Origin: an uncultured Nitrospiraceae bacterium
GTDB lineage: Bacteria; Nitrospirota; Thermodesulfovibrionia; UBA6902
Direction of reading: 5' to 3'
Assembly: GCA_964393845.1 (NCBI GenBank)
Contig: CAYMUX010000004.1
Span: 1 to 62,002 of the forward strand
DNA length: 62,002 nucleotides
Made by a program: the position numbers and the translations under genes. How positions within the stretch are numbered: the stretch's first letter is position 1; the number at the start of each line of letters is the position of its first letter. Below are positions 36,076 to 62,002 of this stretch, piece after piece. The notes under the pieces are model-generated. The model did not search any database and was not told where the DNA came from. It saw only the letters and a list, made by a program, of their open reading frames with translations.

Positions 36076-36150
36076 AATTCCCTCCGGTAATTTTATTTAT
36101 TTATTGCAATTCAAAATTAGCGCCATTTCAGCCTGACTCATATCAGGATG

Positions 36151-38058: not shown

Positions 38059-38074
38059 TTCGTAATTCGTAATT
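38059..38074. repeat. tandem heptamer repeat (AATTACG x2)
   Basis: ttcgtaattcgtaatt fills almost the whole 14-nt gap between the YedE-like stop and the permease ATG. No SD is present there. Confidence 0.6.
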
Positions 38075-39696: not shown

Positions 39697-39766
39697 ATGG
39701 CCTTATTATAATCAATTTAAACGTGTGCTTAACGGTTAGGCAAGGAAATACGGGATGAAATTATTT

Positions 39767-40081: not shown

Positions 40082-40254
40082 TGGTCAACTCTTGCAAGGA
40101 GTTCTTCAGTCGATAACAATTTCCCATCTTCAGCGTCTTTAAGACCTTCAAGAACCTGAGCAATAAAATTTATCTCATACATAATATCTTCGACAGAACA
40201 GCCGTCAGGAAGACGCTTTATAGACTGAACGGTTGCTTCCTTGAGTAAATCCAT
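40069..40254 (-). CDS. type II antitoxin (small, acidic)
   Basis: AAGGTGG SD before the ATG at 40254. The product is MDLLKEATVQSIKRLPDGCSVEDIMYEINFIAQVLEGLKDAEDGKLLSTEELLARVDQWGK. It overlaps the toxin by 13 nt. Confidence 0.6.
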   Translation of the reverse strand: MDLLKEATVQSIKRLPDGCSVEDIMYEINFIAQVLEGLKDAEDGKLLSTEELLARVDQWGK

Positions 40255-40308
40255 TTTCGACACCACCTTTCATCAAGTCTTTTCATAATTATAACAAATA
40301 TTACACCG

Positions 40309-41223
40309 TCAATATTTTTGATACGGCGGCATATTTGTCCGTTTTGCGAGGTCCCTTACAATGTCATAATCCTCATCCCTGACCCCTGCAAAACCTTCAA
40401 GACGCGTCCTCCTGAGAACACTCACCGTTTCTCCGTCTATCTCCACAGTGTCCGACTCTTTGAGCTCCAGCAGGGCCTTTTTAAATCTTTCAGCAAATGA
40501 GTCCTCTACCCTCTGCGTGTAACCGAACGTGCAGTACGGAATCGGATCGCCTTTTGCGATTATCCTGAAATCATCAGAGACAATTTTACCGTCTTCGATC
40601 ATCTTTTCAAAATCGAGCATCTGAAAAGCCCCCGCGTCGAATTTGCCGTAAAGAACGCTGTATATGACTTTCTCGTGTTTATATGTGCCGGTCGGTATCG
40701 TATAGAAAGACAGATCATCCTCCGGATTGATTCCCTCGCTAAGCATCAGGTCATACTGCTGTAAATAACCCGTGGGCCCCAGCATCGGGCCGAAGATCAT
40801 GCTCCGGCCCTTCAGGTCTTTTACCGTCTTTATATCACTGTCTCTTGTCGTTACAATAGCGCCGGCTGATTTAAAACCGAGCGATCCCTGGACATCCGCA
40901 GTCAGGACCTTCACTCCGTGGAAGCGGTTCAGTATGATATAAAGCAGTGAATTGGTATGAGTGAAATCCAGGTTCCCGGCTTCCTTTGTAAATTGAATCG
41001 TATTAATAGCTACCGCCTCTGTCCTTACACCCAGCTTTTTCCCGAGATATTCTGTCAACGGCCTGAACCTGTATAGTGTCTCTTCCTCGCTGTTGCATAT
41101 CATGTAGCCGATTTTTATTACCTTCTCATTCTTGACTGAGGAAGGCTCCGGCCGGCAGGATAAAAATATTACTATTATGAAAAGTACGAACATTGAAATG
41201 ACCGTTGTTTTCTTGCCTGTCAA
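40309..41223 (-). CDS. PhnD-like substrate-binding lipoprotein (third paralog)
   Basis: 304 aa with the lipobox-like FLSC. KIGYMICNSEEET...GPTGYLQQ... fits the PhnD-type pattern. Confidence 0.7.
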   Translation of the reverse strand: MTGKKTTVISMFVLFIIVIFLSCRPEPSSVKNEKVIKIGYMICNSEEETLYRFRPLTEYLGKKLGVRTEAVAINTIQFTKEAGNLDFTHTNSLLYIILNRFHGVKVLTADVQGSLGFKSAGAIVTTRDSDIKTVKDLKGRSMIFGPMLGPTGYLQQYDLMLSEGINPEDDLSFYTIPTGTYKHEKVIYSVLYGKFDAGAFQMLDFEKMIEDGKIVSDDFRIIAKGDPIPYCTFGYTQRVEDSFAERFKKALLELKESDTVEIDGETVSVLRRTRLEGFAGVRDEDYDIVRDLAKRTNMPPYQKY

Positions 41224-41343
41224 TTGATCATCCTCATTATTAAAATAATTACAAGCCGGTTAATAAAGCAAATACTCTTTGTCGACAACAAAAACAAAAA
41301 AACCCGGCAATCCCGATTACAACTCTACTTTAATATTTTTACT

Positions 41344-42264
41344 CTACCTGAGTCCATGCATTCTCCTCAGCAGATAATATACCCCGCCCAGGGCAATGAT
41401 AATAAAACCGGTGTAAACATACACAGTACCGGGGTCCCTCGTTATCTGTATGCCCACAAACGGCCGGCCTGCCGTGTCACGGTCCGTTGCCGTATGGTAG
41501 AAATTCATCCCCCCCCACTTCAGGGGACTGTTCACACCAACCTTGCCCTCCGCGACCATTTCAGAATCCCGGAGCAAGCCCATATCCACCCAGGTCTTTT
41601 TTATAACGGGGTCCTGGTATGCAACCAGTTTAAACGCAAAGGGAAAACCCTCCGGGAGGGTGCCGGCCCCCGACGTATCGGCGCTGCCTATAAAATCACC
41701 TTTATAATATACGCTCAATTTAAGCTTCTTCGCGTAGAGTTCGAGTTCATCCGCCCGCACCGTATATTCTTCCATAACAAAGTCTTCCCCGGTCTTAAGA
41801 ATAAATAATCCAAACTTCTCTTCGCCCCTTAACACTCCCACCTTGACCGGGACCGGATAGTATTCCTCATAAAGTTTTTTAATCATGATCTTAACACCCG
41901 GGGAAATATCCTTTGCAAGGTCCCACCGGTAGACCTTATCAGCAACGTCCCCTTCATAGATATTCACCGTGGCCACGAAGCCGAGAGAACTGATGCCGCC
42001 GCCGATAAAGGCGGTTATGACGCCTACGTGTATCAAGAGAATAGGTTTTGAAAGTATCTTTATTCTCTGAATGGTGCATAAGGAGAGATTTATAACCAGC
42101 AGCCACAACAGTCCGCTGATAATATTCCATATGAGAGGGACATTCCCCTCTGTAAAAGTTGTCACCGCAAGCAGCAGGCACAGTACCGGCAAAAGACCTA
42201 TTGTCAGCTCTTTGGATGAAAGTAAATAGTATGGCCATCTGATTCCTTTCCCGGAAGATTTCAT
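41344..42264 (-). CDS. ResB-like cytochrome c biogenesis family protein (short form)
   Basis: 306 aa. It has LSSKELTIGLL..., HVGVITAFIGGGIS, NIYEGD, VNSPLKWGGMNFYH and a C-terminal TM (DPGTVYVYTGFIIIALGGV). Confidence 0.65.
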   Translation of the reverse strand: MKSSGKGIRWPYYLLSSKELTIGLLPVLCLLLAVTTFTEGNVPLIWNIISGLLWLLVINLSLCTIQRIKILSKPILLIHVGVITAFIGGGISSLGFVATVNIYEGDVADKVYRWDLAKDISPGVKIMIKKLYEEYYPVPVKVGVLRGEEKFGLFILKTGEDFVMEEYTVRADELELYAKKLKLSVYYKGDFIGSADTSGAGTLPEGFPFAFKLVAYQDPVIKKTWVDMGLLRDSEMVAEGKVGVNSPLKWGGMNFYHTATDRDTAGRPFVGIQITRDPGTVYVYTGFIIIALGGVYYLLRRMHGLR

Positions 42265-42284
42265 TTACACGCCGGCCGCTTGCT

Positions 42285-42881
42285 TCATATAAGTTTTTTC
42301 TTCTTCAAAAAATCCCTTGCAGCCCTTCTGACTTTTTCCCCTGATTTAACGGCCTTGACCACCTTATTGAAATCCGTATCATTTGAGATGCCGTTCAGCT
42401 TATTAATGACCCTTGGAAGCGCTGGAAAATTAATGAGCACATCCTCAGTTATCACCGCAGCATAAAAATATTTGCCGCTGCCCTTCTCTTCAGGCAAAAA
42501 ACCGAACGGGTTTAGCCAGATAAGGTTCATTCTTTCCCTGAATTCTTTTTTAGATATGTCATAATCTTTTTCTTTGTCTTTGCTATTGGGCATGTTCAGC
42601 ATACTCATCGCGTGATCAGTGTTTTCTATGATTATTCCCAGTTCTGCTTTCTTGACGGAATCATAAAGCTCTTTCGCATTGTCAAACACCTTGATGTTCA
42701 CCGTGGTCCCGGTCCTCTCGTTTATAAGCACGGAAACGAGTTCGGCAAGCAGATTTTCATTCACCGAATTTGTTATGCCTATATTGATAATCCTGCCCAC
42801 ACAGGCCTGCGATCTTACACCGAAAGACAGGAGCACAGAGAGCAATAAAATTAAAGCTGTTGTCCTCATTTTCCGTTTCAT
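42285..42881 (-). CDS. secreted substrate-binding-domain-like protein (glycine-betaine/OpuAC-like, short)
   Basis: 198 aa with a signal peptide. There is only weak pattern resemblance (IGITNSVNENLLAELVS...ELGIIIENTD). Confidence 0.35.
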   Translation of the reverse strand: MKRKMRTTALILLLSVLLSFGVRSQACVGRIINIGITNSVNENLLAELVSVLINERTGTTVNIKVFDNAKELYDSVKKAELGIIIENTDHAMSMLNMPNSKDKEKDYDISKKEFRERMNLIWLNPFGFLPEEKGSGKYFYAAVITEDVLINFPALPRVINKLNGISNDTDFNKVVKAVKSGEKVRRAARDFLKKKKLI

Positions 42882-42893
42882 ATAACCGTGCCT

Positions 42894-43592
42894 TTATTCT
42901 TTTGTGTCAATTGTAATGTCATAACTATTTCTCTCTCCCTCAATAGTTATTTCACCGGTAATACGGTAATGAGACCGGAGAGGAAATTCCCCGGCGTATC
43001 CAGTGAAGTATTTCCCGGGGGAAAGATAGAGTGTGTATTCCCCCTTCTCATCCGTCCATGCCGATACATAAGCAGGTATCTCAGGCATGTCTTTGCTCCT
43101 GGCGGCTATCGCATAAACATATGCGACAGGGGCGCCCTTGTGATCGATGATCCTTCCTGTTAGTTTATAGTAATCTTCCCGTGTTTTCCTGACAAGACGG
43201 GCAGCCTCTCTGATATCAGCTATTTTAAAGTCCTTCTCAATTACCTTGCCTGCCTCAAGTTCAATCTCAAGCGGTTCACCTGAATGCTTGTCTCCGGTTG
43301 CCAGCGGCCCGTATTTCTCACCCTTTCGAAGCCGTGCCACGGCCCACCACTTTCCGGCAGGCACAGTCATGCTGAACCTGCCCAGTGTATCAGTCCTGGC
43401 GGATATGAAATCCGCGGGCCTCCGCGTGTCAGTTGTCCTGTAAATAAACAGCTCGGCGCTTTTTACGGCCTTACCATCCACGTCTGTTACCCGTCCTTTT
43501 AGAACGGAGTTTTCCAGTGCTATGGCTGGATTAAAAGTCAAAGTGATTACGAATATAATAACGGCACTTATTATGATTCTGTTAAATTTCAC
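42894..43592 (-). CDS. secreted protein with two carboxypeptidase-regulatory-like (CarboxypepD_reg) domains
   Basis: 232 aa with a signal peptide. LKGRVTDVDGKAVKSAELFIY... and LTGRIIDHKGAPVAYVYAIA... are starts typical of this Ig-like fold. Confidence 0.7.
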   Translation of the reverse strand: MKFNRIIISAVIIFVITLTFNPAIALENSVLKGRVTDVDGKAVKSAELFIYRTTDTRRPADFISARTDTLGRFSMTVPAGKWWAVARLRKGEKYGPLATGDKHSGEPLEIELEAGKVIEKDFKIADIREAARLVRKTREDYYKLTGRIIDHKGAPVAYVYAIAARSKDMPEIPAYVSAWTDEKGEYTLYLSPGKYFTGYAGEFPLRSHYRITGEITIEGERNSYDITIDTKE

Positions 43593-46138
43593 TCTCCGGT
43601 CTCCACCTTTTCATTTAAAACCGGTTCAAACACAACCGTGCCTATGCCGGGCTCTCTTCTTGCGTCAAAGATGGTCCCGGCAGGACCTGCAGTTCCCCAC
43701 CAGTTTTCCTTTGCGTTAACATCCTCCGTATTAAAATCACCTGCCCTGACATTATAATTTGTATTGGAATAAATATTGTTCCTTCTGATCGTCAGCCCTC
43801 CTCCGCCTTCCCGGACAAATATCCCTGTTTCATTTCCGTATATATCATTCTTTTCTATCAGCGCATTTGCCATGAAGGCCCTCATCCCGATACCGTTCTC
43901 CTTAAACAGAGAGCCGGTAATTTCAATGGGCCCGCTCCTGAACCTCATCCCCCCCAAGTTCCTGATAAACCGGGAGTTATTTACTTTCAGGGCGGTAAAA
44001 TGACTGTGGACCCCCCAGGTCGCATGTTCAAAGTCACAATATAAAATCACACTGCCGTCCGCATGCTCAAGGAGTATCTCGTCCCAAAAGCTGCTGTCAC
44101 TCTTTTCAAGTGAGGTAAAGGTGATCCTCCTGTCTTTTTCTCCTGCTGCAATGAGCCGCGCACTGCTGATCTTCATACCCGCGCCCTTTGAAAGATAGAC
44201 CTTTGTCCCGGGGGCAATTGTGAGCGTAGTACCGGAACGCACCTCAACCTGGTCCCGGATGTGAACACTGTTATTCCATGTAATATTGGACAAGACCGTT
44301 CTCACAGGCCATGTATAATTCACCGGTCCTTTTTTCGCAGGCAGATAATCGACCTTGCCCCTGCCCTGTTCATCACCTTTATCAAATATTGCATCATCTG
44401 TGTTACCGTCACCCCACCAGTTCATCAGCGCAGAGATATCCGACGCGCCTTCATTTTCAATGGCGTATATACCGTTTCCTGTTATTGAGTTTTCAGTAAT
44501 GGTCCCGGTAAAAGACTGTATGCCTATGCCCCTCTCCCCATTGTCTGAAATAACATTGCCTTTAATCACCGCTCCGGAAGAGAGTATATTTATCCCGTTA
44601 AAGCCGCTGCCCTGTATAAAATTCCCGCTGAGATCAACATTGTCGCTGTTTTTCAGGGCAACGCCTGTCTCAAAGTTGTTCGTAATGACATTACCGCTGA
44701 ACCGTCCGTAAAATGAATCATTGACCATAAGGCCAGAGCGGTTGCAGTCAATGATATTTTCCCTGACCACCACGGCGCCTTCCCTGATCTTAAATCCCTC
44801 ATCCATATTGCCGAGGATTTTATTGTTTGACGCAGACAGACTTGAGCGAAAGAAATTGACGCCGTTGATATTGTTATAGACATAGTTATCGGTAAAGATG
44901 ATTTCCGAGTCCCTGCCCTTGATCCCGCTCTTATTGTTAAAGATATAGTTGCCTTTCATCTCCACTGCCGACTCCTGAAACTGTATGGCCCGGTAATTAT
45001 TGCTAAGCACAGCCCCCTGCACCATTACATTGGAGAAATGGAAATGGAGCCCCCGGTAGGCGTCCTCTATCCGGCAGTATTCCACCAGGTTCTGCGCGCC
45101 GTCGCTGTTCATTATATTTATGGCGTCCCAGTCACCCATTGAACGTATTATTCCCGCTGACCGGAATATGATCGGATTATCTCTCGTTCCCTTTGCAATA
45201 AGTACCCCCTGCATCAGGAGCCCGTTCTCCCCTATGCCGTCGCCGTTTGTGTCCTTCTTTGTGAACTCGATAACGGTGCCTGGAACAATAACCAGCCTGA
45301 CCTTTTCAGGGACCCTTATCAGTCCGCTTATTTCAATCCTGCCTCTCCAGACCGTGTCTTCAAGCAGCACCTGGTCTTCATACCGCCTGGTTATCTCTTT
45401 ATGCGGAACAGTGTAATTTTCAATAATATCAGGGCCAGTCCTCCGGCATGACCGGTCGTCTCTTGCATGTACTTTCCCGGCATCCCCGGTTTTCTTTCGG
45501 GACGTTAAGACGTCTTTGTCAATAACGCCATACAGATACAAATCCTTTTTTCTGTTGCCCTCCACAAAGCTGCTGCCGTAATTTACTTTTGCCCCGTTTA
45601 ATTCAAAGACCCCGTAGTCGTTCCCGGTTATCAGGGTATTTTCCATCTGTACAAGCGACTGCACTCCATGCGCCGCAAGGCCATAACGGTTCCCGGTTGA
45701 GACAGAGTCCCGTATATAAAGAACACCTTTAAATATGTGAATACCTGTTTCCGCATTCCGGATGGCGCACCATTTTATGTCGGCGGTCCCTCCGTCAATA
45801 ACAATTCCGGCCCATCCGTCTGATGCCACACTGTCCTTTATATGAAACACAACCTGATGCCCTTCCGAGCCCTCGATGTTCAGTCTGCCCCTGATCATAA
45901 TCTCTGTCAGGGATGAAAGATATTCAGGATCGGTCTTGGTCCTGTCGGAAGGTTCTATGTTTACCTTTGTGTCCGGCAGGATGGTCAGCGTAACGCCTTG
46001 AGGGACGAGGATGTCGTTATTAACAGAAACCTCACCGCTCCAGACGGTATCTTTTATCAGGGTCTCTCCCCTGGACGTAAGCGGGAATAATAAAACTGCG
46101 AGAGCGCAGGACAAAATTGCTATTCTCAGAAAAGTCAT
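43589..46138 (-). CDS. secreted right-handed parallel beta-helix (NosD/PbH1-like) protein, three modules
   Basis: 849 aa with a signal peptide. The entry motif DTVW(S/R)G...(V/I)P.G.TLTI.PGT recurs three times. Many N/G-rich 22-24-aa coils follow, plus NWWG motifs. Confidence 0.8.
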   Translation of the reverse strand: MTFLRIAILSCALAVLLFPLTSRGETLIKDTVWSGEVSVNNDILVPQGVTLTILPDTKVNIEPSDRTKTDPEYLSSLTEIMIRGRLNIEGSEGHQVVFHIKDSVASDGWAGIVIDGGTADIKWCAIRNAETGIHIFKGVLYIRDSVSTGNRYGLAAHGVQSLVQMENTLITGNDYGVFELNGAKVNYGSSFVEGNRKKDLYLYGVIDKDVLTSRKKTGDAGKVHARDDRSCRRTGPDIIENYTVPHKEITRRYEDQVLLEDTVWRGRIEISGLIRVPEKVRLVIVPGTVIEFTKKDTNGDGIGENGLLMQGVLIAKGTRDNPIIFRSAGIIRSMGDWDAINIMNSDGAQNLVEYCRIEDAYRGLHFHFSNVMVQGAVLSNNYRAIQFQESAVEMKGNYIFNNKSGIKGRDSEIIFTDNYVYNNINGVNFFRSSLSASNNKILGNMDEGFKIREGAVVVRENIIDCNRSGLMVNDSFYGRFSGNVITNNFETGVALKNSDNVDLSGNFIQGSGFNGINILSSGAVIKGNVISDNGERGIGIQSFTGTITENSITGNGIYAIENEGASDISALMNWWGDGNTDDAIFDKGDEQGRGKVDYLPAKKGPVNYTWPVRTVLSNITWNNSVHIRDQVEVRSGTTLTIAPGTKVYLSKGAGMKISSARLIAAGEKDRRITFTSLEKSDSSFWDEILLEHADGSVILYCDFEHATWGVHSHFTALKVNNSRFIRNLGGMRFRSGPIEITGSLFKENGIGMRAFMANALIEKNDIYGNETGIFVREGGGGLTIRRNNIYSNTNYNVRAGDFNTEDVNAKENWWGTAGPAGTIFDARREPGIGTVVFEPVLNEKVETGE

Positions 46139-46201
46139 AGTCTATTTTATGCCAATTGGGGCTGGAAAATAAAATTTCATGAACGATAAAAATATTCCGG
46201 A

Positions 46202-46247
46202 TAAAAAATGGCCGGGTCTTTTTACATGTAAATCATAGACCCGGCCC
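46202..46247 (-). terminator. intrinsic terminator after the 20-codon gene (copy B)
   Basis: On the minus strand, GGCCGGGTCT pairs with AGACCCGGCC around an 18-nt loop, followed by AUUUUUUAU. Confidence 0.65.
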
Positions 46248-46276
46248 TGACATGAGGGTTTTTTAATTATGCTTAC

Positions 46277-46339
46277 TTAACACGGATGCACAACGGCCCT
46301 TCCGACTATCCTCGGCGCAACATATTTTATTTTCTTCAC
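46277..46339 (-). CDS. unannotated 20-aa peptide (M)KKIKYVAPRIVGRAVVHPC, copy B
   Basis: GGGAGGTGG SD lies 6 nt before the GTG. An in-frame ATG at 46360 would add MNRGRWN but has no SD. It is a paralog of 49402..49464 and ends at TAA. Confidence 0.6.
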   Translation of the reverse strand: MKKIKYVAPRIVGRAVVHPC

Positions 46340-46376
46340 ATTCCACCTCCCTCTGTTCATTATTGAAAAGCCTGAT

Positions 46377-47240
46377 TCATTTTTTCTTTTCGGTATCTTC
46401 TTTCATCTTGTGTTTCATTTCTTCCTTAATATTTTTTTCAGGCGTCTGCTCAGGCTGCTGGCCCTTCGGCCCTCTCTCAAAATGCCTTACTACTTTTATA
46501 GTTATGCCCTGTGTATTCTCCCCCGTTTTAACAGCAACGGCAGCAGGCCTTTCTTCACCGTAACCACCCATTACCGAGCCTGCAACAGGCGGGCCTCCTC
46601 CGTATATATCCCTGACTCTCAGATAATAATTACCGCCCTTGTCCACTGCGATGAAGTACTTTCCATCCGGCCCTGTCTTGTACGACGTAAACGGCGGAAT
46701 GCCGGTCATCGTCTCTGTAATATAGGCAAATACTATGGCCCCTCCGACAGGGTCGCCGCTCATGTCGACGATTGTGCCGGATATCCCGCTGACCCCTTCG
46801 GCGATTTTCCTCTTGAACGGAACGGCCTCTGAAACAACTCCAACACTCTGGCTTTTATCTTTTTCAATTATATAGGCAACAGCAATTCCGTCCTTGTCAC
46901 GTCTTATAAAAAAGTAATCACCGTCCTGAGGGGGACCGATCTTTTCACCTGACATCCTTTTTATGGCGCCCATGTAATACTTACCCACAGGCAGCATAAT
47001 ACGGAACTTGCCCTCTTCATCGAGGTCTCCTATCTGGTCCGGGGTCCTCACGAACTTGTCAGGGTCCGGCGCCGGCCCTGTCGCAGCATCAAAGAACACC
47101 ACCATCCCGCCTGACATAGGACCTCCGTCCTTGATCATAATTTGCCCTGAGAGCCAGCCGATAGCGACTTCCTGCGCAGCAATATGTGATGCAAAGACAA
47201 ACATGATGAACAAAAATACAACAATGCCCTTTCTCACCAT
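46377..47240 (-). CDS. secreted CarboxypepD_reg-like protein with Lys/Glu-rich tail
   Basis: 287 aa with a signal peptide. LSGQIMIKDGGPMSGGMVVFF... and ISGTIVDMSGDPVGGAIVFAY... mark the domain starts. The tail is EKNIKEEMKHKMKEDTEKKK. It is a paralog of 49550..50134. Confidence 0.7.
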   Translation of the reverse strand: MVRKGIVVFLFIMFVFASHIAAQEVAIGWLSGQIMIKDGGPMSGGMVVFFDAATGPAPDPDKFVRTPDQIGDLDEEGKFRIMLPVGKYYMGAIKRMSGEKIGPPQDGDYFFIRRDKDGIAVAYIIEKDKSQSVGVVSEAVPFKRKIAEGVSGISGTIVDMSGDPVGGAIVFAYITETMTGIPPFTSYKTGPDGKYFIAVDKGGNYYLRVRDIYGGGPPVAGSVMGGYGEERPAAVAVKTGENTQGITIKVVRHFERGPKGQQPEQTPEKNIKEEMKHKMKEDTEKKK

Positions 47241-47241
47241 T

Positions 47242-49326
47242 TCATTCCCCCTTTCTCACCCCTGTAGTTTCAGCAGGAGACGTTAAATAAGGTTTATATA
47301 ATACGTTACCTAATGTTCTGTCGGTCTTTCCGTCATATATCGTCCCAGGGATGTCCGTTTCCCTGATGCTGCCCCACCAGTTGTCCTTGAGTGAAATATC
47401 ATAACCCTGTCTTTCACCAAGCCTGTAATTATATGAAACATTATACGTTATATTATTGTGTGTGACAACAGGCTGATACTGGTTAAGTATATCCTTCCTG
47501 TCAAATGTTTCAGAGAAGTCCACAATGTTCTGGTTTGAAGGCACAAGAAAAATTCCGACATCATTGTCCCTGATATTGTTGTAAGCGATCTCAACAGGTC
47601 CTTCAAGCCTTGTATGTCTGATCCCATAGGCATTATCGTGAATATCGTTATGCTCGATACGGAGCTCCGTCCTTCCAAACCGTATCCCTTCATGATTTCG
47701 GGCAAATACCGAATCCGTTATAAGCGCTTTTGAAAAATGCACCTGGACTCCTGTAAAGGCATATTCGAAGATGCAATATTTAACAACGCTTTCATCTCCC
47801 GACACAAAGAACAATAGATACGCCCAGTCCATTTTATCAGGCCTGTCTTCACCTGAAGTAAATCTGATCATATTACCGGGAGCGCCTTCCGCGAGTAACC
47901 TTCCGCTGACTGTAATCTTGCTGTCACCAACTCCATCACGGTCCCTGTCGATTTTCCTGAACATAACAACCGTGCCGGGGGTGACTGTCAATGTGGCATT
48001 GCGCGCAACATGTACGGTGCCTTTTATAATGATGTAACCGCTCCAAACAGTATCTTTGTTTATAACTTTATCACCATCGTAAAAATGATTGCGAATCAGT
48101 GATAGGGGGTCAGGGGTTGGGGATTGGGAATTAGCGTCTAGTGCCTCTTGCCTCTTGCCTGCTTCCGCCATGACTCTACTGACCAGGATATCCACATTAT
48201 CAATGGAATCTTTTTCCATCATAACTGAATGATTTGCATTCTCCTCATAGAGTCCATAATTTTCGCCTTTTGCCGGGGCCTCTCCAATAAGGTCCCTTGC
48301 GAGTATATAATAGCTGCCCTTCCCTGCCGTATTAATTGTGTAAAAACCTTTATTGTCGGTCCTTGCCAGATATTCCGGCATGGTCCTGACAAAAAGCATT
48401 TGAAACATTTGTTCGGGCTTACCCTTATATGCCATGACATAAAGGTCCTGCATCGGGTTTCCCTTCATGTCGGTCACACGCCCTTTAATACTCAGGACAT
48501 CTGATATCTTTTCAATTTTATTCTCTCTGAACCGCATACTGTCTTCTCCGGCTTTTTTTACCATTATAGCCGGATACACTTTTTCATCAAGAAATGCCTT
48601 CAGGTCGTCCTTGGGATAACATGGTATCTCTATCTGTTTCACTCCTGAAGCCGTAACAGCAACAGGATTCCCGTCATAGTAGCAGAAAAGGTCCCCCTTT
48701 CTCAGTGGCCGCAATCCGCTGAAGTCCATTCGCTTACGGGCCACGATAACATATTCACCCGGTTCAGGCGACATAGTGAAAGCCCCTTCATTATTCGTTG
48801 TACTTGTAAGGAACCCCATTCCCCTGAAATTCATATCTGTCACGGGATAGATTGATATCTGGGCGCCATTAACAGGGGCGCCTTTAAATGTAATTCTGCC
48901 GGACAATCCAGAGGCAGATGATTCGTTAAATATCTCACTCGTCCTGGGGAGGGCCATAAACGGGATCCATAGATCAGTATCCGTTATTTCTACCGGATTC
49001 GCGCCGTGGTAGGAAAAATATTTCGTACCGGCAAAATCCCCGGTTGAAACCAGATAATACCTTCCGGGAGGCAATTCAATTTTGTAGAAGCCAATCTTGT
49101 CTCCCTTTTCAGAAACAAACGAGGGCCGTCCATTCATATAGTCCTGGAACGTGCCATATGCAAACACTTGAGAATCCCCTACAGGGCCTTTTTCAGAAAG
49201 GACAATGCCTTCTATAACAGCGGATGATGATAAATCAGGGAAGGAAAACCCGGCGAAGAGACAGTAGAAAAATAAAATAAACCACTTTGATTTATATCCA
49301 TATCTAATCACATTCAATAATACCAT
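47242..49326 (-). CDS. secreted fusion: three CarboxypepD_reg-like domains + one NosD-like beta-helix module
   Basis: 694 aa. The domain starts are IEGIVLSEKGPVGDSQVFAY, LSGRITFKGAPVNGAQISIY and IKGRVTDMKGNPMQDLYVMAY. Then come DTVWSGYIIIKGTVHVARNATLTVTPGTVVMF, beta-helix coils and DNWWG. Confidence 0.8.
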   Translation of the reverse strand: MVLLNVIRYGYKSKWFILFFYCLFAGFSFPDLSSSAVIEGIVLSEKGPVGDSQVFAYGTFQDYMNGRPSFVSEKGDKIGFYKIELPPGRYYLVSTGDFAGTKYFSYHGANPVEITDTDLWIPFMALPRTSEIFNESSASGLSGRITFKGAPVNGAQISIYPVTDMNFRGMGFLTSTTNNEGAFTMSPEPGEYVIVARKRMDFSGLRPLRKGDLFCYYDGNPVAVTASGVKQIEIPCYPKDDLKAFLDEKVYPAIMVKKAGEDSMRFRENKIEKISDVLSIKGRVTDMKGNPMQDLYVMAYKGKPEQMFQMLFVRTMPEYLARTDNKGFYTINTAGKGSYYILARDLIGEAPAKGENYGLYEENANHSVMMEKDSIDNVDILVSRVMAEAGKRQEALDANSQSPTPDPLSLIRNHFYDGDKVINKDTVWSGYIIIKGTVHVARNATLTVTPGTVVMFRKIDRDRDGVGDSKITVSGRLLAEGAPGNMIRFTSGEDRPDKMDWAYLLFFVSGDESVVKYCIFEYAFTGVQVHFSKALITDSVFARNHEGIRFGRTELRIEHNDIHDNAYGIRHTRLEGPVEIAYNNIRDNDVGIFLVPSNQNIVDFSETFDRKDILNQYQPVVTHNNITYNVSYNYRLGERQGYDISLKDNWWGSIRETDIPGTIYDGKTDRTLGNVLYKPYLTSPAETTGVRKGE

Positions 49327-49334
49327 ATAATATT

Positions 49335-49384
49335 AATAAAGGAGGATATCCATTCAATAAATGAACAAGATATCCTCCTTTATT
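49335..49384 (-). terminator. 16-bp perfect hairpin after the 20-codon gene (copy A); attenuator/terminator-like
   Basis: aataaaggaggatatc pairs with gatatcctcctttatt around an 18-nt loop. The hairpin ends 8 nt before the ATG of 47242..49326. The flank is A/U-rich but has no clean U tract. Confidence 0.5.
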
Positions 49385-49401
49385 CGCACGACCACATGTA
49401 C

Positions 49402-57641: not shown

Positions 57642-60600
57642 TTACCATTGGGTTACGTTGTTCCACTTCTGGTTATTCCACGTCCCTGTCATGGTGTCAT
57701 GACATGCAGGCCACCAACCTTTGTCTCGAGGGAATCTGTAGGTAGTGCTATACTGGTAACCCGCACCTCCAGAAACTACACGCCCTCTATGATTGTCATT
57801 AAGACAGTTTGTAGCCATCAACCTCGGCAAACCCGAATTGTGCGGCTGATGACATTTTGAGCAGGGATAATTATGTTCCACGTTATTGCCCCATCCTTTT
57901 ACTGTCTCGTGAATCCTGTCGAGGCTCTTGAATGCAGTATTCTTGTTTATCCCGTCCGTCAGGTTGGCCTTCGGATGACACCTGAGACAAAGGCCGGCAA
58001 ATTTGGTTTCATCCTCGCTGATCTTTCCTCCCGCACCAAACGTCTGGCGGTCAAAATAAACCTGCTGGTCCACGCCGCTGTCATAGCGATGATAATTACT
58101 TATTGATGTGGGCGCAACGTCTTCCTTATAGGGCGATGTAAGCCATGTTCCCTTAAGAAGAGGAACCGCATATGCCTGGTCGCTCCCAAGGCTTGGGCTT
58201 ATACCGTGAGGGTCATGACATGGCGTGCAAAGCCCGTTGATTGATCCCTGCGCCGGGTTGGTCAATGAGGAAGACGCCTTCAGATGCCCGCCGAGCATGG
58301 TCCTGCTCGATCTGTATGAATATCTTGTGGTAGACCCCTTTGCGCCTGTACCGAAACGTAATGTATCTTTGTAGCCCATTATCGCCTCTGATGCGCCGTA
58401 TGTGGAATTATAGCCCCAGGGCTTTGTGCCGGAACTCGCTGTCTCATGGCAGTCAAAACACTGCGCTGCCCCTGCATTGTACGGATTAACTCCGGTTGTG
58501 TTCGCGGCAGCCTTGTACGTCATGGAATAGCCGCCCTTGCCTGCCTGCGTCTCTTTTAAATTCCCGCCGTTATTCGTCCCGTTAAATGTCTTATAGCCTG
58601 AAGTAACGCCTGTTGCCTTTGAACCGTGAGAGCTGTGACAGTCAAAACACTGAACGTTCTGGCCCCCGTTTCGCGTATTGGGTATCGTGCCGTCCAGTCC
58701 CGTTGCCGCATCCCATCCGCCCTGATTGGCTACTGCATTGCCGTGCGCGGAGAATGACTTGGTTATGTTCTTCTTCGCAGCATTCGTTGTTGTTGTATAT
58801 TTGCCCCAGGTGGTTGTGCCTGTCTGGGAATAACGCGCGGCTATACTCGTTCTGTCCCACGCGTACTGTCTCGGTGTCTTGCAGTCACCGTTGTCGGGGT
58901 CCACTATGTTGAACGACTCCGTATCATTGTTCTGGTCGCTGTGGCAGCTCAAACAGTGCTGGGTAACTTTTGTAACCTCAGTCCTCTCATCAACAGTGCC
59001 GACCTTGTTGGCTGTAAATGTTACCGCTGTAGTCCCGGCAGTATACGTCGTAGGCCGCGTTCCCGCTCCCCAGATGACAAGATCAGATGCTGCCTCTTTG
59101 ACAGAAACATGAGTTTCGAAATTATATCCTGCATGATAATCAACATTGATTAGTCCCATGTCCGTTGCCTCCCAGTGGCAGGCATAGCAGTGCTTATTTG
59201 TTAACGTCACGCCCTGAATGTGATGGGAATTGGAACGTAATTGTCCCATAATGTCCATCCGCTTGTTGATTACCCCTTCATGACACTTTGTGCAGTCTTT
59301 CGGAAGTCCGAATCCATCATGTCTCGGTATGGGTTTGTTTTGATGGCAGGTGTTACAAGCTTTGCCTGAGGCGTGGCTGTCGCTGAACCTGTGCTCATGA
59401 CAGGTCGTGCATATCCTGCCTGATTGATGCCCGTCTCCATAATCAAACCTGTAATGCTGTCCTGTTTGTGAATGGCATACATTGCATATACCGTTATACG
59501 GGGCCGATGTCTTTGCATAATCCAGTCCCGTCTGTTTCCTTGTAAAGGATACATCCCTGCGCGTTACCGGAATTCCGTATGTTCCGTCCGTTTCTGTAGC
59601 AACCTTGTTCTGTATCATGTATATATTGGTGTCGCCGTGAGGGTCGTGACAGTCCCAGCAGAACTTACCGCCCTTCCAAACTCCGTTATTCTGATACGCC
59701 GCATAATGCTTATAGCCGAAATGTGTTGAGGTAGCTTTACTCACTGCGGTAATATGACCGGTGCCGGGATTATAACCAAGCTGATACTGAGCGCCTGTAT
59801 GGCATTGCTGACACCTGTTGTTGCTGTCATCATCATGGCAAATCAGGCAAACGCCCATCATCACATACTGATTTTTGATATCCGTCTTTTCTGCCGCAGT
59901 CCACAGACCTACCCCTGTGATATGTGTTTGGTTATCTGTTGCATGACAGACCGCAACACAGGATGTCAGTCCGTTTATGTAGGATGTATGATCCTGGGAA
60001 AAAGGAGGACTTGTTATAGCCGTCAGTTGAGGCGCAAGCGAGCCGGCTGCATTATGGCAACTTAGACACTCGCTGTCCAGACCCTCCATGTGGCAGTATA
60101 CGCATTCTTTGTCGAAACGCTTATTGAACTGGTCATGCTTCTTCAGCCGGAAAGGGTTTGTCGAGTCATTATGCAATATATCATTGTCATGGCAGTACCA
60201 GCATGGATTCCCGGGAAAATTAGCGGGCGGATTACTTGACGTGTAATTACCCGAAGCAGCAGGCCTGCCATGCCCTGAACTTGCCCATTCATTCATATTG
60301 ATCTTTCCGCGCGTTCCATTAAATGCCCCGAAGTCATCAATATCACTTCCGGTCGTGCCGTGACATGAAAGGCAGATGACTGCGTTATCGACTGAATCCC
60401 CCCATTGAGGGTCGGCTCCGGTATGACAGGCTGTGTTAGAACAGGTTTTGCCGACCTGGCTGAATGTGCCCCCGCCTGAAAAAGTGACGTCTTTTATCTT
60501 GTTGACATGGTAAGCTGGATTTATATGGTTGATTTCGTCCATTGCGCCGCTTCCGGTGTGACACCCGGCTGTATCACAGCTTTGGGCTGTAATTGTGAGG

Positions 60601-62002
60601 GCATGACAGTTGTTACAGGTGAAATTCGTCAGCAGATGACGTTTATGCGTATTGGCCTTTTCCGTTCCCGCGCCGGTATTGGTATACATGGGCATGGCTG
60701 ACTTCCATTCCTCGCTGGCAGACCATCCTATTCTGCCGTCATTATGGCAGGGAGCGCAACTGCCGGTTGGGTGTCCATGACACGTATTACATTTCGCGTG
60801 TCCGTCCGTCCATGCAAAGGGTCTCACTTCAGGATTCACCGTGGTACCGTCACTGTGGCAGTACACATTGTTGCACACCATCGTCGCAGGGTTGTAACTC
60901 GGCGCCGGATTGCCGGCTATGTACCACTTCGACGCCATCACTATGTCCTTTGTCTCATTTACATGCTTTGAGTAGTCCTTTATATTGCCGGACGTATTCA
61001 CCGTAGCGTCATGACAGTAATAACACGGATATTTCCTCACCCACTGGCTGCTTACAAGACGATTATGCCCATTGCTGCTCATCTCAAGCGCCTCAAGACC
61101 CGTCCTCCCGTTATGACATGAATCACACGCCATGGCTGTGGTATCACCCCACTTTACCGCTACATTGGGCGCGCCTCCCCTTGCATTGCTGTGACAGTAT
61201 GTGCTCGTGCATGACTTGGTCCCTGCCGTATAAGTTCCCCCTGCTGAAAATATAACGTCCTTTGTATTGTTGGCGTGATAAGACTGGTTTTTGATTGCGC
61301 TGCTTCCGGTAGCTGTTTGATAATGACACTTCTCGCAGTGAAAGCCGTGCCCGGAAGCATCCGTATTCTTGCCATGCTTATAACTGAGCGCACTTAATGA
61401 ACCTCCTGCATCATGACAGGACGAACAGGTTACAGAGCCGTCCCATGACGGTGAAGTGGCCTGCCCACCTCCCCAGACCGTGCCGTTAGGAAGTTCGCCG
61501 TGGCAATATATACTGCTGCAGGTCTTGCTGCCCGTATTTATTACAGTAGTATTAACTTCGCTGTTGTCATAATTCGCAGTTGTCTGCCCGTCATATATGC
61601 CGCCGGAATACGCGCCCCCAAAGAGCGAAAATCCTATCGTTATGGTTCCATTATTGTGCGTTGACCCAGTGCCTAAGCTGTTGTAATGACAACTCTCACA
61701 GATGTATGCCTTGATGGTTACATGCTTATTATGCGCTCCAGCTGTTGTTGAGCCTGTAGCCGGACTATTCGCCAGACCGTCAGGGCCTCCGGTTGCCGTG
61801 TTTACCACAGGCGGATAACCATGGCAGACGTCACAGCCCACTACCTTGAAACCCTCCGTATGCCGGTGGCACGTCGTACACTTCACCCCGGCATTATGGG
61901 TATGGTTGCCCGTAACATCATTTTTGTGATATTGGGTCTGCGTGTGACAGACCTCACATATTCCATCATATGTCGCATCTCCATCAGCAAACGACTTTGA
62001 AC
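57642..62002 (-). CDS. very large multiheme c-type cytochrome, 5' end outside the window
   Basis: The frame stays open from 62002 (…SKSFADGDATYDGICEVCHTQTQYH…), so the track 'M' at 61886 is an internal GTG. Manual count gives 29 CXXCH, 5 CX4CH and 1 CX3CH. Paired CX4CH...CXXCH units resemble the Geobacter-type repeat. Confidence 0.9.
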   Translation of the reverse strand, partial: SKSFADGDATYDGICEVCHTQTQYHKNDVTGNHTHNAGVKCTTCHRHTEGFKVVGCDVCHGYPPVVNTATGGPDGLANSPATGSTTAGAHNKHVTIKAYICESCHYNSLGTGSTHNNGTITIGFSLFGGAYSGGIYDGQTTANYDNSEVNTTVINTGSKTCSSIYCHGELPNGTVWGGGQATSPSWDGSVTCSSCHDAGGSLSALSYKHGKNTDASGHGFHCEKCHYQTATGSSAIKNQSYHANNTKDVIFSAGGTYTAGTKSCTSTYCHSNARGGAPNVAVKWGDTTAMACDSCHNGRTGLEALEMSSNGHNRLVSSQWVRKYPCYYCHDATVNTSGNIKDYSKHVNETKDIVMASKWYIAGNPAPSYNPATMVCNNVYCHSDGTTVNPEVRPFAWTDGHAKCNTCHGHPTGSCAPCHNDGRIGWSASEEWKSAMPMYTNTGAGTEKANTHKRHLLTNFTCNNCHALTITAQSCDTAGCHTGSGAMDEINHINPAYHVNKIKDVTFSGGGTFSQVGKTCSNTACHTGADPQWGDSVDNAVICLSCHGTTGSDIDDFGAFNGTRGKINMNEWASSGHGRPAASGNYTSSNPPANFPGNPCWYCHDNDILHNDSTNPFRLKKHDQFNKRFDKECVYCHMEGLDSECLSCHNAAGSLAPQLTAITSPPFSQDHTSYINGLTSCVAVCHATDNQTHITGVGLWTAAEKTDIKNQYVMMGVCLICHDDDSNNRCQQCHTGAQYQLGYNPGTGHITAVSKATSTHFGYKHYAAYQNNGVWKGGKFCWDCHDPHGDTNIYMIQNKVATETDGTYGIPVTRRDVSFTRKQTGLDYAKTSAPYNGICNVCHSQTGQHYRFDYGDGHQSGRICTTCHEHRFSDSHASGKACNTCHQNKPIPRHDGFGLPKDCTKCHEGVINKRMDIMGQLRSNSHHIQGVTLTNKHCYACHWEATDMGLINVDYHAGYNFETHVSVKEAASDLVIWGAGTRPTTYTAGTTAVTFTANKVGTVDERTEVTKVTQHCLSCHSDQNNDTESFNIVDPDNGDCKTPRQYAWDRTSIAARYSQTGTTTWGKYTTTTNAAKKNITKSFSAHGNAVANQGGWDAATGLDGTIPNTRNGGQNVQCFDCHSSHGSKATGVTSGYKTFNGTNNGGNLKETQAGKGGYSMTYKAAANTTGVNPYNAGAAQCFDCHETASSGTKPWGYNSTYGASEAIMGYKDTLRFGTGAKGSTTRYSYRSSRTMLGGHLKASSSLTNPAQGSINGLCTPCHDPHGISPSLGSDQAYAVPLLKGTWLTSPYKEDVAPTSISNYHRYDSGVDQQVYFDRQTFGAGGKISEDETKFAGLCLRCHPKANLTDGINKNTAFKSLDRIHETVKGWGNNVEHNYPCSKCHQPHNSGLPRLMATNCLNDNHRGRVVSGGAGYQYSTTYRFPRDKGWWPACHDTMTGTWNNQKWNNVTQW

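Follow-up and report, generated by a model that had tools for sequence, protein, structure and literature searches.

We find that positions 41344 to 62002 of the DNA analysed here are half of a gene cluster, conserved in two bacterial phyla, in which a never-annotated 20-residue peptide appears to be modified by an orphan radical-SAM (rSAM) enzyme set, GeoRSP, and is encoded next to giant multi-haem cytochromes. This points to an unknown peptide accessory of extracellular electron-transfer proteins. The window is a 62,002-nucleotide stretch (positions 1 to 62,002) of contig CAYMUX010000004.1, assembly GCA_964393845.1, from an uncultured Nitrospiraceae bacterium. A preliminary description had singled out positions 41344 to 62002 as a co-directional locus combining a giant cytochrome, a giant surface protein, β-helix and Ig-like modules, small peptides and a ResB-like protein, and that observation is confirmed. 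Its interpretation, a distinct surface redox or assembly system, is supported only in part, and as a description remains reasonable but unproven.

ORF listing shows an unbroken minus-strand array with gaps ranging from -25 to about 140 nt, and Pfam/NCBIfam searches confirmed every domain that had been named. The array begins with a giant multi-haem c-type cytochrome (57642..>62002) whose N-terminus is cut by the contig end and which matches GSu_C4xC__C2xCH and cytochrome c7/c3 families. It contains 29 CxxCH, 5 CxxxxCH and 1 CxxxCH motifs, giving 35 in the visible 1452 aa, and since full-length homologues are about 1507-1522 aa, only about 50-70 N-terminal residues are missing. It is followed by a giant secreted protein (50236..57666) with SBBP β-propeller repeats, many FN3 domains and DUF2341, homologues of which lie next to the cluster or the peptide in loci L002, L006, L011, L019, L025, L029, L113-L118 and L121 (L numbers denote individual loci recovered in our searches). 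Next are Creg194 (49550..50134), a secreted CarboxypepD_reg (Ig-like) protein paralogous to Creg287; the peptide gene pepB (49402..49464); BH694 (47242..49326), with two CarboxypepD_reg domains and one NosD-like right-handed β-helix; Creg287 (46377..47240), a secreted CarboxypepD_reg protein and a conserved neighbour upstream of the peptide and the β-helix gene; and the peptide gene pepA (46277..46339). The remainder consists of BH849 (43589..46138), a secreted protein with three NosD-like β-helix modules and invariant HFHF/HSHF motifs, which anchors the conserved core; Creg232 (42894..43592), a secreted CarboxypepD_reg protein with weak similarity to DUF4198; SBP198 (42285..42881), a small OpuAC-like periplasmic binding-domain protein; and ResB306 (41344..42264), a stand-alone CcsB/ResB-like membrane protein. 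In all, the array encodes two NosD-like β-helix proteins, four CarboxypepD_reg proteins and two 20-aa peptides. Nearly all products had been credited with signal peptides; these were judged by eye only, and the peptides and ResB306, a 4-TM protein, have none.

The boundary at 41344 is artificial. All further genes of the system are likewise on the minus strand, and comprise a PhnD-like periplasmic anion-binding lipoprotein (40309..41223); a small membrane-anchored TPR protein (39172..39696); a YedE-family putative selenium/sulfur transporter (38073..39179; TIGR04112, 377.6 bits against a cut-off of 200); an ArsP_1/SO_0444-type permease (36151..38058) with an LTPLCACG motif and an unassigned ~240-aa C-terminal domain; and a small cupin (35749..36075). 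These are followed by the GeoRSP cassette in its canonical order, which is the most constant part of the system. It consists of a PqqD-family peptide chaperone (RRE; 35424..35732; TIGR04302, 147.8 bits against a cut-off of 100), a radical SAM/SPASM enzyme with CNFKCSHC and a full SPASM Cys motif (34430..35440; TIGR04303, 576.3 bits against a cut-off of 400), and a GeoRSP-type SPASM-only protein (33553..34392). For the third protein, TIGR04304 is by far the best hit, but its 181.6 bits fall below the cut-off of 300, while the Geobacter orthologue in L026 scores 343.5; the score thus leaves its formal assignment unsettled. A ParE/RelE-type toxin-antitoxin pair (39767..40266) within the array is a window-specific insertion, absent from all 104 related loci. 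The co-directional array had been extended to 32753, but conservation supports the cluster only down to 33553, and the ORFs at 32035..33202 are not syntenic elsewhere. The rSAM operon, previously treated as something the array passes through, is the core of one system of at least 28 kb, of which positions 41344 to 62002 form the upstream half.

Conservation of synteny in relatives had been proposed in advance as a test that could refute the idea of a single unit, and we carried it out from three independent anchors: the β-helix protein, the rSAM enzyme and the peptide. It passed in both phyla. In about 100 loci from Nitrospirota and Geobacterales/Desulfuromonadales the order is peptide, β-helix, Ig-like, SBP, ResB-like, permease and cupin, then the GeoRSP cassette, with PhnD-like and YedE genes. 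Anchoring on BH849 gave 29 loci at 44-82% identity in Nitrospirota, Geobacterales, Desulfuromonadales and Desulfobulbales; Creg232 is present in 26, SBP198 in 24, ResB306 in 22 and the GeoRSP rSAM in 22, and most of the rest are cut by contig ends. Anchoring on the rSAM gave 75 loci, of which 56 show BH849, 56 Creg232, 56 ResB306 and 59 SBP198; 13 of the 19 loci without BH849 have less than 6 kb of upstream DNA. Chance juxtaposition of unrelated secreted-protein genes, for which nothing speaks beyond the heterogeneous domain content, is refuted by this analysis. The cytochrome and the FN3 giant are frequent but not obligatory neighbours of the core cluster, being found in at least 14 of 23 loci with 5 kb or more of upstream DNA.

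The two small peptides, which had been listed as one item among many, are in our view the key element. They are real paralogues, MKKIKYVPPRIVGQAVVHPC and V/MKKIKYVAPRIVGRAVVHPC, with the consensus M-K-K-x-K-Y-V-x-P-R/K-I/V-V-G-S-A-x-V-H-P-C, and they are strongly selected and never annotated. pepB encodes MKKIKYVPPRIVGQAVVHPC (stop TGA) and is preceded by AGGAGG, whereas pepA has a GTG start, encodes KKIKYVAPRIVGRAVVHPC (stop TAA) and is preceded by GGAGG. Among 94 distinct nucleotide versions, pairwise differences per site at codon positions 1/2/3 are 0.21/0.18/0.61. Y6, P9, P19 and C20 are invariant and H18 nearly so, length is 19-21 aa, and a Shine-Dalgarno motif is present in 93 of 93 copies. 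Just after pepB lies a 22-bp hairpin (49335..49384, minus strand; dG -30.6 kcal/mol, z -5.8, with 0 of 200 shuffles folding as well), and pepA is followed by an intrinsic-terminator-like hairpin with a 10-bp GC stem plus U6 (46202..46246, minus strand). Overall, 52% of copies are followed by a hairpin plus T-tract, against 4% in shuffles.

Genomic evidence connects the peptide to the rSAM enzyme. In two MAGs (L100, L180) the operon consists of PqqD, GeoRSP rSAM (468 and 471 bits against a cut-off of 400) and then the peptide, with housekeeping flanks and no β-helix genes, which makes the peptide the probable missing substrate. At the level of the cluster, linkage is seen in 35 of 64 loci, and in 27 of the 64 the peptide lies less than 400 nt upstream of the BH849 gene of the GeoRSP cluster; 37-38 of the 45 assemblies with the peptide also gave a GeoRSP or BH849 hit. 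On the other hand, 29 of 64 clusters show no peptide in the DNA fetched; often only about 2.5 kb upstream was visible, but L005, L015 and L017 have 10 kb. In the window itself the peptides are 11-14 kb from the rSAM gene. The nearest solved relatives of the rSAM are the peptide-modifying SPASM enzymes PqqE, SuiB and SkfB, although it scores nearly as well against tetrapyrrole-modifying enzymes (AhbD, NirJ) as against peptide maturases. We also considered whether the small ORFs are cis-regulatory leader or arrest peptides (TnaC-like) that control the downstream hairpin. Their shortness and conservation, the terminal Pro-Cys-stop and the frequent hairpins would fit, but in L100 and L180 the peptide is the last gene of the operon, downstream genes vary widely or lie on the other strand whereas upstream genes are consistent, and the pepA stop codon is about 30 nt from the hairpin. 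Moreover, a PqqD chaperone needs a peptide substrate and no other candidate exists. We regard this alternative as very unlikely.

The peptide is also the element that tracks giant cytochromes across the genome. A scan of 185k species genomes for the peptide gave 72 loci, with several copies per genome. Of 69 copies, 38 lie 190 nt or less downstream of a multi-haem ORF, and 39 of these upstream ORFs match the C-terminal region of the window's cytochrome. This C-terminal ~530-650 aa (about residues 800-1452 of the visible part) is the domain shared by all peptide-linked cytochromes; homologues at 31-55% identity over it lie next to the peptide, and 292 homologues were found. Stand-alone ~600-aa paralogues of the domain lack an adjacent peptide, and an AF2 model of it reached a pLDDT of only 46 and says nothing about a peptide-binding site. 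Some copies of the peptide gene lie just upstream of omcZ–ozpA operons. An ordinary secreted RiPP (signal or antimicrobial) whose genes merely sit among surface-protein genes would share the rSAM/SPASM, RRE and short-precursor architecture, and multiple precursor copies and terminators after precursors are common in RiPP loci. However, the sequence is almost frozen across two phyla, whereas bioactive RiPP cores usually diversify; no leader protease, ABC exporter or immunity gene is present; and the systematic placement behind one cytochrome family would be left unexplained. This possibility seems remote.

The ResB-like assignment in the preliminary description is correct. ResB306 has 3+1 TM helices and a β-rich periplasmic domain, profile searches matched CcsBA (3.5e-8; 25vk_A and 7s9y_A), its invariant His79 aligns with the TM histidine, and an AF2 model (pLDDT 89.5) gave CcsBA 7s9y as its best PDB match (Foldseek E 8.5e-12, TMq 0.51). 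This raises the possibility of a dedicated System-II-like maturation module for the giant cytochromes, made up of the CcsB-like protein, a DsbD-like thiol pathway and a TPR protein, with the peptide and rSAM as an unrelated neighbouring system. In its favour, the Geobacter variant has a DsbD_2-like protein and a TPR protein with weak CcmH/CycH similarity, and the cytochromes carry unusual CxxxxCH motifs and an invariant single-Cys 'CH' motif. Against it, no CcsA/WWD partner lies in any cluster examined, with no such Pfam hit among the cluster ORFs of the window or of L026 (the rest of the genome was not covered). ResB306 co-occurs with the GeoRSP genes (56 of 75 loci) more regularly than with a cytochrome (13 of 75 in the same windows), and it is the peptide, not ResB306, that travels with the cytochromes. 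We consider this explanation unlikely.

A second alternative, also unlikely but less so, is a metal or chalcogen trafficking system that imports, exports or inserts a soft metal or metalloid (Cu, Ni/Co, Se/S), with the His-Pro-Cys peptide as a small chaperone or metallophore and the cytochromes as merely co-located reductases. The YedE transporter and the PhnD-like anion binder recur in both phyla, the permease carries the LTPLCACG motif and is replaced in Geobacter by a NicO/DsbD_2-like protein, NosD-like helices, weak DUF4198 (NikK-like) hits and a cupin are present, paralogous cytochromes sit next to NikR-CbiMQO, and the peptide ends in His-x-Cys. Nonetheless, all metal links are family-level resemblances, several below curated cut-offs, and an Rfam search found no metal-sensing riboswitch or other element. 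Selenocysteine read-through of the peptide's stop codon is excluded. Nor does this model explain why the peptide gene is copied behind many cytochrome genes far from the cluster.

Taken together, our preferred explanation, which we hold to be somewhat more likely than not, is that window positions 33553..62002 encode one conserved system interrupted by a strain-specific toxin-antitoxin insertion. In this view, pepA and pepB are precursors of a conserved 20-aa peptide whose basic N-terminal half (KKxKYVxPR/K-I/V-V) is the likely recognition sequence for the PqqD-type chaperone, and whose invariant C-terminal His-Pro-Cys, with Cys as the last residue, is the likely site of chemistry; the GeoRSP cassette, including the SPASM-only Fe-S protein, would modify it in the cytoplasm. 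These two steps rest on gene-context evidence, whereas those that follow, like the nature of the chemistry itself, are inferred. Membrane proteins would move the product, or a ligand it carries, across the inner membrane, the candidates being the CcsB/ResB-like protein with its conserved TM histidine, the ArsP-type CxC permease (or its NicO/DsbD-like replacement in Geobacter) and YedE. The secreted NosD-like β-helix proteins, the Ig-like CarboxypepD_reg proteins and two binding proteins would handle it in the periplasm or at the surface, although the peptide has no signal sequence and no dedicated peptide exporter or leader protease is evident. The clients would be giant multi-haem cytochromes that share the C-terminal domain. 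The peptide gene is placed directly 3′ of such genes throughout these genomes and is usually followed by a terminator, which fits a stoichiometric partner (small subunit, bound or attached prosthetic peptide, or maturation factor) better than a catalytic cofactor made from one gene. All links are genomic; no modification, export or binding has been shown. A more speculative reading, which we consider doubtful although not excluded, is that the modified peptide is a new kind of stoichiometric small subunit or prosthetic peptide of giant extracellular multi-haem cytochromes, which may carry or ligate a haem or metal through its terminal His/Cys and may reach the periplasm through the CcsB-like protein. 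If so, cytochrome-based extracellular electron transfer in Geobacterales and Nitrospirota depends on a ribosomal peptide component that has been overlooked until now.

The earlier statement that the locus does not correspond to an OmcS/OmcZ or pilin conduit holds. With respect to a porin-cytochrome (Pcc/Mtr/Ext) conduit, in which an outer-membrane β-barrel gene is flanked by periplasmic and surface multi-haem cytochromes, no cluster protein other than the giant cytochrome has more than one haem motif and no Pfam porin domain was hit, but β-barrels were not searched for specifically and the contig ends inside the cytochrome gene, so that these observations do not decide the comparison. In contrast to the OmcZ-OzpA nanowire operon (PMC9473688), which pairs an OmcZ homologue with an OzpA-type subtilase, the window has no OmcZ homologue. 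In L122, L136, L138, L148 and L173 the peptide gene does lie beside an ~8-haem, ~470-520-aa cytochrome, which in L136 is an OmcZ orthologue (8d9m_A, 1.3e-153) followed by a subtilase and a PPIase; in those loci the peptide still follows a 26-haem giant cytochrome, so the omcZ adjacency may be secondary. ResB306 shares the CcsB topology, fold and TM histidine with System II cytochrome c synthases (CcsBA/ResBC), but is about 300 aa rather than about 450-550 aa, has a smaller periplasmic domain and lacks a CcsA/WWD partner in the cluster. BH849 and BH694 hit the NosD β-helix family (PF05048, 5.6e-22 and 5.8e-7) of the NosDFYL apparatus that matures N2O reductase, yet no NosF/NosY ABC partners, NosL or NosZ were found among the window ORFs scanned, and BH849 has three helix modules with no solved structure detectable by sequence.

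Among RRE-dependent rSAM peptide systems, GeoRSP (TIGR04302, TIGR04303, TIGR04304) is defined only as a three-gene cassette, and no paper in the library searched mentions it. To this our analysis adds a candidate substrate peptide, about 10 conserved partner genes and a link to giant cytochromes. Quinohaemoprotein amine dehydrogenase provides a precedent for an rSAM-modified small polypeptide that becomes a stoichiometric subunit of a periplasmic haem-containing complex, in that its small subunit QhpC is cross-linked by the rSAM/SPASM enzyme QhpD. QhpC, however, is about 80 aa and has a dedicated exporter/peptidase; there is no sequence relation, and association of our peptide with the cytochrome is only inferred. 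This comparison was not tested here. The peptide-derived redox cofactor systems of mycofactocin (MftA/B/C) and PQQ (PqqA/D/E) also combine a short, highly conserved ribosomal peptide with a PqqD-type chaperone and an rSAM/SPASM enzyme, PqqE is the closest solved structure, the mycofactocin maturase is among the best family hits, and redox-protein partners are multi-copy (following the logic of PMC3023750). In the system described here the peptide is unrelated in sequence and ends in His-Pro-Cys, there are no glycosyltransferase, peptidase or flavoenzyme tailoring genes, the peptide gene itself is multi-copy and sits behind each inferred client gene, and the partners are secreted multi-haem cytochromes and β-helix proteins.

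From 62002 down to 41344 every credible gene lies on the minus strand, with overlaps or gaps of at most about 140 nt. The series begins with a c-type cytochrome (57642..>62002) whose ORF is still open at the window end, and continues with a giant protein of 2476 aa containing SBBP propeller repeats, many FN3 domains and DUF2341 (50236..57666). These are followed by Creg194 (49550..50134, CarboxypepD_reg), the 20-aa peptide pepB (49402..49464), BH694 (47242..49326, two CarboxypepD_reg domains and a NosD-like β-helix), Creg287 (46377..47240, CarboxypepD_reg) and a second 20-aa peptide, pepA (46277..46339). BH849 (43589..46138, NosD / Beta_helix, three modules), Creg232 (42894..43592, CarboxypepD_reg), SBP198 (42285..42881, OpuAC-like) and ResB306 (41344..42264, ResB-like) complete the array. 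The cytochrome carries 29 CxxCH, 5 CxxxxCH and 1 CxxxCH motifs in its visible 1452 aa, and since full-length homologues are about 1507-1522 aa, little is missing. The preliminary description of these genes as one co-directional locus is accurate. The organism is a Nitrospirota (Thermodesulfovibrionia-like) bacterium, and the closest loci and proteins come from groundwater Nitrospirae MAGs at 80-85% identity.

In the genes just beyond 41344, where the preliminary description had set its boundary, we found a PhnD-like binding lipoprotein (40309..41223), a ParE/RelE-type toxin of 104 aa with its small antitoxin (39767..40266, minus strand), a small TPR protein (39172..39696) and a YedE-family Se/S transporter (38073..39179; 377.6 bits against a cut-off of 200). 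Next come an ArsP_1/SO_0444-type permease with an LTPLCACG motif (36151..38058) and a cupin (35749..36075). The soluble C-terminal extension of this 635-aa permease (about 240 aa, 36151..36900) has no Pfam or NCBIfam match, yet it is conserved with the permease across both phyla. The GeoRSP cassette follows, consisting of a PqqD-type chaperone (35424..35732; 147.8 bits, cut-off 100), an rSAM/SPASM enzyme (34430..35440; 576 bits, cut-off 400) and a SPASM-only protein (33553..34392). The best hit of the last is TIGR04304, but at 181.6 bits against a cut-off of 300, which leaves its assignment undecided. The rSAM has CNFKCSHC and a complete SPASM cysteine pattern, and its nearest solved relatives are PqqE, SuiB and SkfB, all peptide-modifying enzymes. 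The remaining 32 kb of the window encodes housekeeping and regulatory proteins. A role in metal or chalcogen trafficking is one of the main rivals to the interpretation developed below; as a possible clue to a ligand we looked for riboswitches or other known RNAs, and no Rfam hit was obtained in the window or in four related loci.

Conservation of gene order in relatives had been proposed beforehand as the test of whether these genes belong together, and we applied it from three anchors: BH849, the rSAM and, in scans described below, the peptide. With BH849, 29 loci were recovered in Nitrospirota, Geobacter and relatives, Desulfuromonadales and Desulfobulbales. Mapping all window proteins onto them placed Creg232 in 26, SBP198 in 24, ResB306 in 22, and PqqD and rSAM in 22, and most of the rest are truncated by contig ends. 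With the rSAM, 75 loci were recovered, of which 56 carry BH849, 56 Creg232 and 56 ResB306 upstream, and 59 carry SBP198; 52-53 carry the permease-cupin pair and 48-49 the PhnD-like and YedE genes. The locus scans used short back-translated patterns, and therefore under-sample divergent relatives, and many loci are truncated MAG contigs. Of the 19 loci without BH849, 13 have less than 6 kb of upstream DNA. Real exceptions are few: the loci designated L050, L053 and L102, and the minimal loci described below.

Two arrangements exist. In the Nitrospirota type, to which this window belongs, PhnD-TPR-YedE-permease-cupin lie between ResB306 and PqqD. In the Geobacter type, PhnD-YedE follow the SPASM gene, and in one subtype the permease-cupin pair is replaced by a NicO/DsbD_2-like membrane protein, a TPR protein and a short NosD-like protein. 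The toxin-antitoxin pair, which sits between the PhnD-like and TPR genes, is absent from all 104 related loci, and is therefore a strain-specific insertion inside the conserved cluster. The ORFs below 33553 likewise occur in none of the 104 loci, except the ORF o101, which occurs in one. Among them, a small membrane-anchored ORF of 101 aa with one CxxCH motif (32035..32340, minus strand) has a homologue following the SPASM gene only in locus L032, and the overlapping ORFs at 32333..32725 (-) and 32412..32660 (+) cannot both be real; the plus-strand one looks like a coiled-coil membrane protein. The locus is therefore the upstream half of a single conserved cluster, window 33553..62002. The preliminary interpretation, of a possibly distinct surface redox or assembly system ending at 41344 with the toxin-antitoxin pair and the rSAM operon as genes through which the array passes, is supported only in part.

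The peptides are the key element. Both window copies have a strong Shine-Dalgarno site and are followed by a hairpin, with a 10-bp GC stem plus U6 for pepA (-21 kcal/mol) and a 22-bp stem for pepB (-30.6 kcal/mol, z = -5.8). Homologous ORFs occur across the related loci, with the consensus M-K-K-x-K-Y-V-x-P-[RK]-[IV]-V-G-S-A-x-V-H-P-C-stop, in which Tyr6, Pro9, Pro19 and the C-terminal Cys20 are invariant and His18 is nearly so. Across 94 distinct nucleotide versions, pairwise differences per site are 0.21, 0.18 and 0.61 at codon positions 1, 2 and 3, a clear sign of selection on the protein. All 93 copies with an identifiable start have a Shine-Dalgarno-like motif, and length is fixed at 19-21 aa. 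TGA is the stop codon in 65 of 94 copies, and YedE and a hairpin lie nearby, which raised the possibility of selenocysteine read-through. This is excluded, since the in-frame extensions are unconserved and 0-30+ codons long, and 29 copies use TAA or TAG.

None of ten representative peptide sequences exists in a collection of 15 billion predicted proteins, no NCBIfam model matches them, and in the literature searched no paper contains their C-terminal strings. The family appears to be unannotated. This exposes a blind spot in annotation, as the peptide is too short for standard gene callers, yet it is one of the most conserved genes in these loci.

We next examined the link between the peptide and the GeoRSP enzymes. 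In two Deltaproteobacteria MAGs the locus is reduced to PqqD, rSAM and peptide, among housekeeping genes. In the first, L100, the peptide MKKVKYMKPKVVGSSSVHPC lies 113 nt after the rSAM stop, and in the second, L180, MKKYMKPKVVGSSSVHPC lies about 40 nt after it. Both rSAMs exceed the GeoRSP cut-off, at 468 and 471 bits. The PqqD gene of L100 (about 4010..4321) has an in-frame stop at about codon 7 (MKITRN*DIFYR...), which may be a sequencing error or a pseudogene, whereas the equivalent gene in L180 is intact. In the large clusters the peptide lies less than 400 nt upstream of the BH849 gene in 27 of 64 loci, and somewhere in the visible DNA in 35-36 of 64; it was not found in 29 of the 64 visible windows, even with a relaxed short-query tblastn. 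Of the 45 assemblies in which the peptide scan found a copy, 37-38 also appear in the rSAM or BH849 hit lists. A PqqD-type chaperone implies a peptide substrate, and no other candidate is present. We therefore regard the HPC peptide, with fair confidence and by inference from gene context, as the probable GeoRSP substrate; modification of the peptide was not assayed. A conventional secreted RiPP is a further rival to the interpretation given below.

The peptide is also linked to giant cytochromes. A scan of one genome per species (185,579 species) for VG[SN]A[VDN]VHPC returned only 78 stretches and 72 loci. All are in Geobacterales, Desulfuromonadales, 'Deltaproteobacteria' or Nitrospirota, apart from two contigs (L139 and L167) of a MAG labelled Acidithiobacillus, which carry cytochrome + HPC peptide pairs typical of Geobacterales and are probably mis-binned. 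There are several copies per genome, with five in Geobacter sp. AOG1, four in Geobacter H7geo and three in G. hydrogenophilus. Of 69 copies with upstream sequence, 38 lie 13-190 nt downstream of a same-strand ORF with four or more haem motifs, and 39 of these upstream ORFs match the cytochrome of this window, always in its C-terminal region (about residues 770/900 to 1410/1452, 29-50% identity). Their N-terminal parts vary from 10 to 47 haems. Most other copies follow an FN3/propeller giant (6) or a Creg-like ORF. Within 100 nt, 52% of copies are followed by a hairpin plus T-tract, against 4% of shuffles; a regulatory leader peptide is among the rival readings of these small ORFs. Many of the loci are far from the GeoRSP cluster (for example AOG1 at 3.16 Mb against 0.33-0.38 Mb), and the peptide therefore travels with the cytochrome, while the maturation genes are single-copy. 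Around the core cluster itself, a cytochrome with the shared domain or an FN3 giant is visible in at least 14 of 23 loci with 5 kb or more of upstream DNA.

In five loci (L122, L136, L138, L148 and L173) the gene after the peptide, or before it in L148, is an ~8-haem cytochrome of 465-524 aa. In L136 (8098..12224) it is an OmcZ orthologue (8d9m_A, 1.3e-153), followed by an OzpA-like subtilase and a PPIase, all after a 26-haem giant cytochrome; OmcZ and OzpA are as described in PMC9473688. In L130 (8169..15874), and similarly in L149, L150, L137 and L153, cytochrome + peptide are followed by a recurring set consisting of an ankyrin-repeat protein, an 850-aa spermine-synthase-like membrane protein, a TPR protein, a GT9 heptosyltransferase and a second, distant rSAM/SPASM enzyme that is not GeoRSP. 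Ankyrin and NHL proteins also precede the cytochrome in locus L026.

All 38 aligned members of the cytochrome C-terminal domain keep a single-cysteine 'CH' motif about 20 aa from the C-terminus (WPACH here; window 57642..57740, minus strand), without the first Cys of CxxCH, and a terminal W-N-x-x-T-P-W. The motif could be a one-thioether haem site. It is also present in stand-alone ~600-aa paralogues that have no peptide beside them, so it is a family trait and not specific to peptide-linked members. In L177 and L178 (1613..11867) such paralogues sit with NikR, CbiMQO Ni/Co uptake genes, a metallo-beta-lactamase-fold protein and 2-3 sulfatases, and in L178 they lie directly upstream of a Creg + NosD-like + Creg module, with no HPC peptide. 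An AF2 model of the C-terminal domain had a pLDDT of 46 and was unusable, so no fold search was run on it, and sequence and profile searches of the PDB gave nothing significant. BH849 likewise gave no significant PDB hit, by single sequence or by a 15-sequence profile. BH849 has invariant His-x-His-Phe motifs in two β-helix modules (GLHFHFSN, WGVHSHFT), and Creg287 and Creg194 share a Met-rich N-terminal motif (MMMIKDGGLMSDG / IMIKDGGPMSGGM); these may be metal or ligand sites.

ResB306 has 536 homologues, nearly all 300-310 aa; an exact look-up of the protein in a contig index returned no record. Invariant residues include His79, Cys63, Trp114-Asp115 and Trp250. A family profile matches the CcsB part of CcsBA structures (25vk_A at 3.5e-8; 7s9y_A at 6.5e-5), and His79 aligns with the transmembrane histidine of that part. 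The AF2 model (pLDDT 89.5) has three N-terminal TM helices, a β-rich periplasmic domain and a C-terminal TM helix, and its only strong PDB matches are CcsBA 7s9y and 7s9z (E 8.5e-12, TMq 0.51). ResB306 is a miniature stand-alone CcsB, with no CcsA partner in the cluster. A cytochrome maturation module that is independent of the peptide is the remaining rival to the interpretation that follows.

How the system most likely works can be outlined from these observations. Our analysis, which rests entirely on comparative genomics, demonstrates a single conserved cluster, a real and selected peptide family, genetic coupling of that peptide to GeoRSP PqqD and rSAM and to one family of giant cytochromes, and a CcsB-like fold. 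The steps that connect them are inferred. In this view the N-terminal half of the peptide would be bound by PqqD, and the rSAM would act at or near the C-terminal Cys. SPASM chemistries on Cys or on C-terminal residues include thioether formation, MftC-type decarboxylation and cross-linking, and SbtM-type thio-oxazole formation. Of these, only the SbtM family name was confirmed in this analysis. The product would cross the membrane with help from ResB306 and/or the CxC permease and be handled outside the cytoplasm by the NosD-like and Ig-like proteins, signal peptides not having been predicted here. It would end up as a stoichiometric partner of the giant cytochromes.

GeoRSP has been an orphan annotation, with three HMMs and no substrate, and our literature searches for the name and the TIGR accessions returned nothing relevant. 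These data give it a concrete candidate substrate and about ten conserved partners. The position of the peptide gene behind giant multi-haem cytochromes, and in some genomes in front of omcZ–ozpA nanowire operons, ties radical-SAM peptide chemistry to extracellular electron transfer, a well-studied process in which the assembly and cofactor needs of the very large cytochromes are unknown. The system occurs in the cultured strains Geobacter sp. AOG1, G. hydrogenophilus DSM 13691, Geomobilimonas luticola JCM 17780, Pelotalea chapellei DSM 13688 and Geotalea toluenoxydans, and the hypotheses are therefore directly testable.

Compared with known systems, the cluster is not a System II synthase, as it has no CcsA, and it is not NosDFYL, as it has no NosFY, NosL or NosZ. 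It does not match a porin-cytochrome conduit, although β-barrels were not predicted, and it is not an OmcZ operon. The cassette is a member of GeoRSP, with the caveat that the SPASM protein scores below its cut-off. What is new is the peptide family, the ten-gene extension of GeoRSP and the systematic peptide-cytochrome pairing. In the proposed view the system works like the mycofactocin and PQQ type of peptide-plus-PqqD-plus-rSAM systems, and by analogy it may work like QHNDH, in which an rSAM-cross-linked small subunit joins a periplasmic haem protein.
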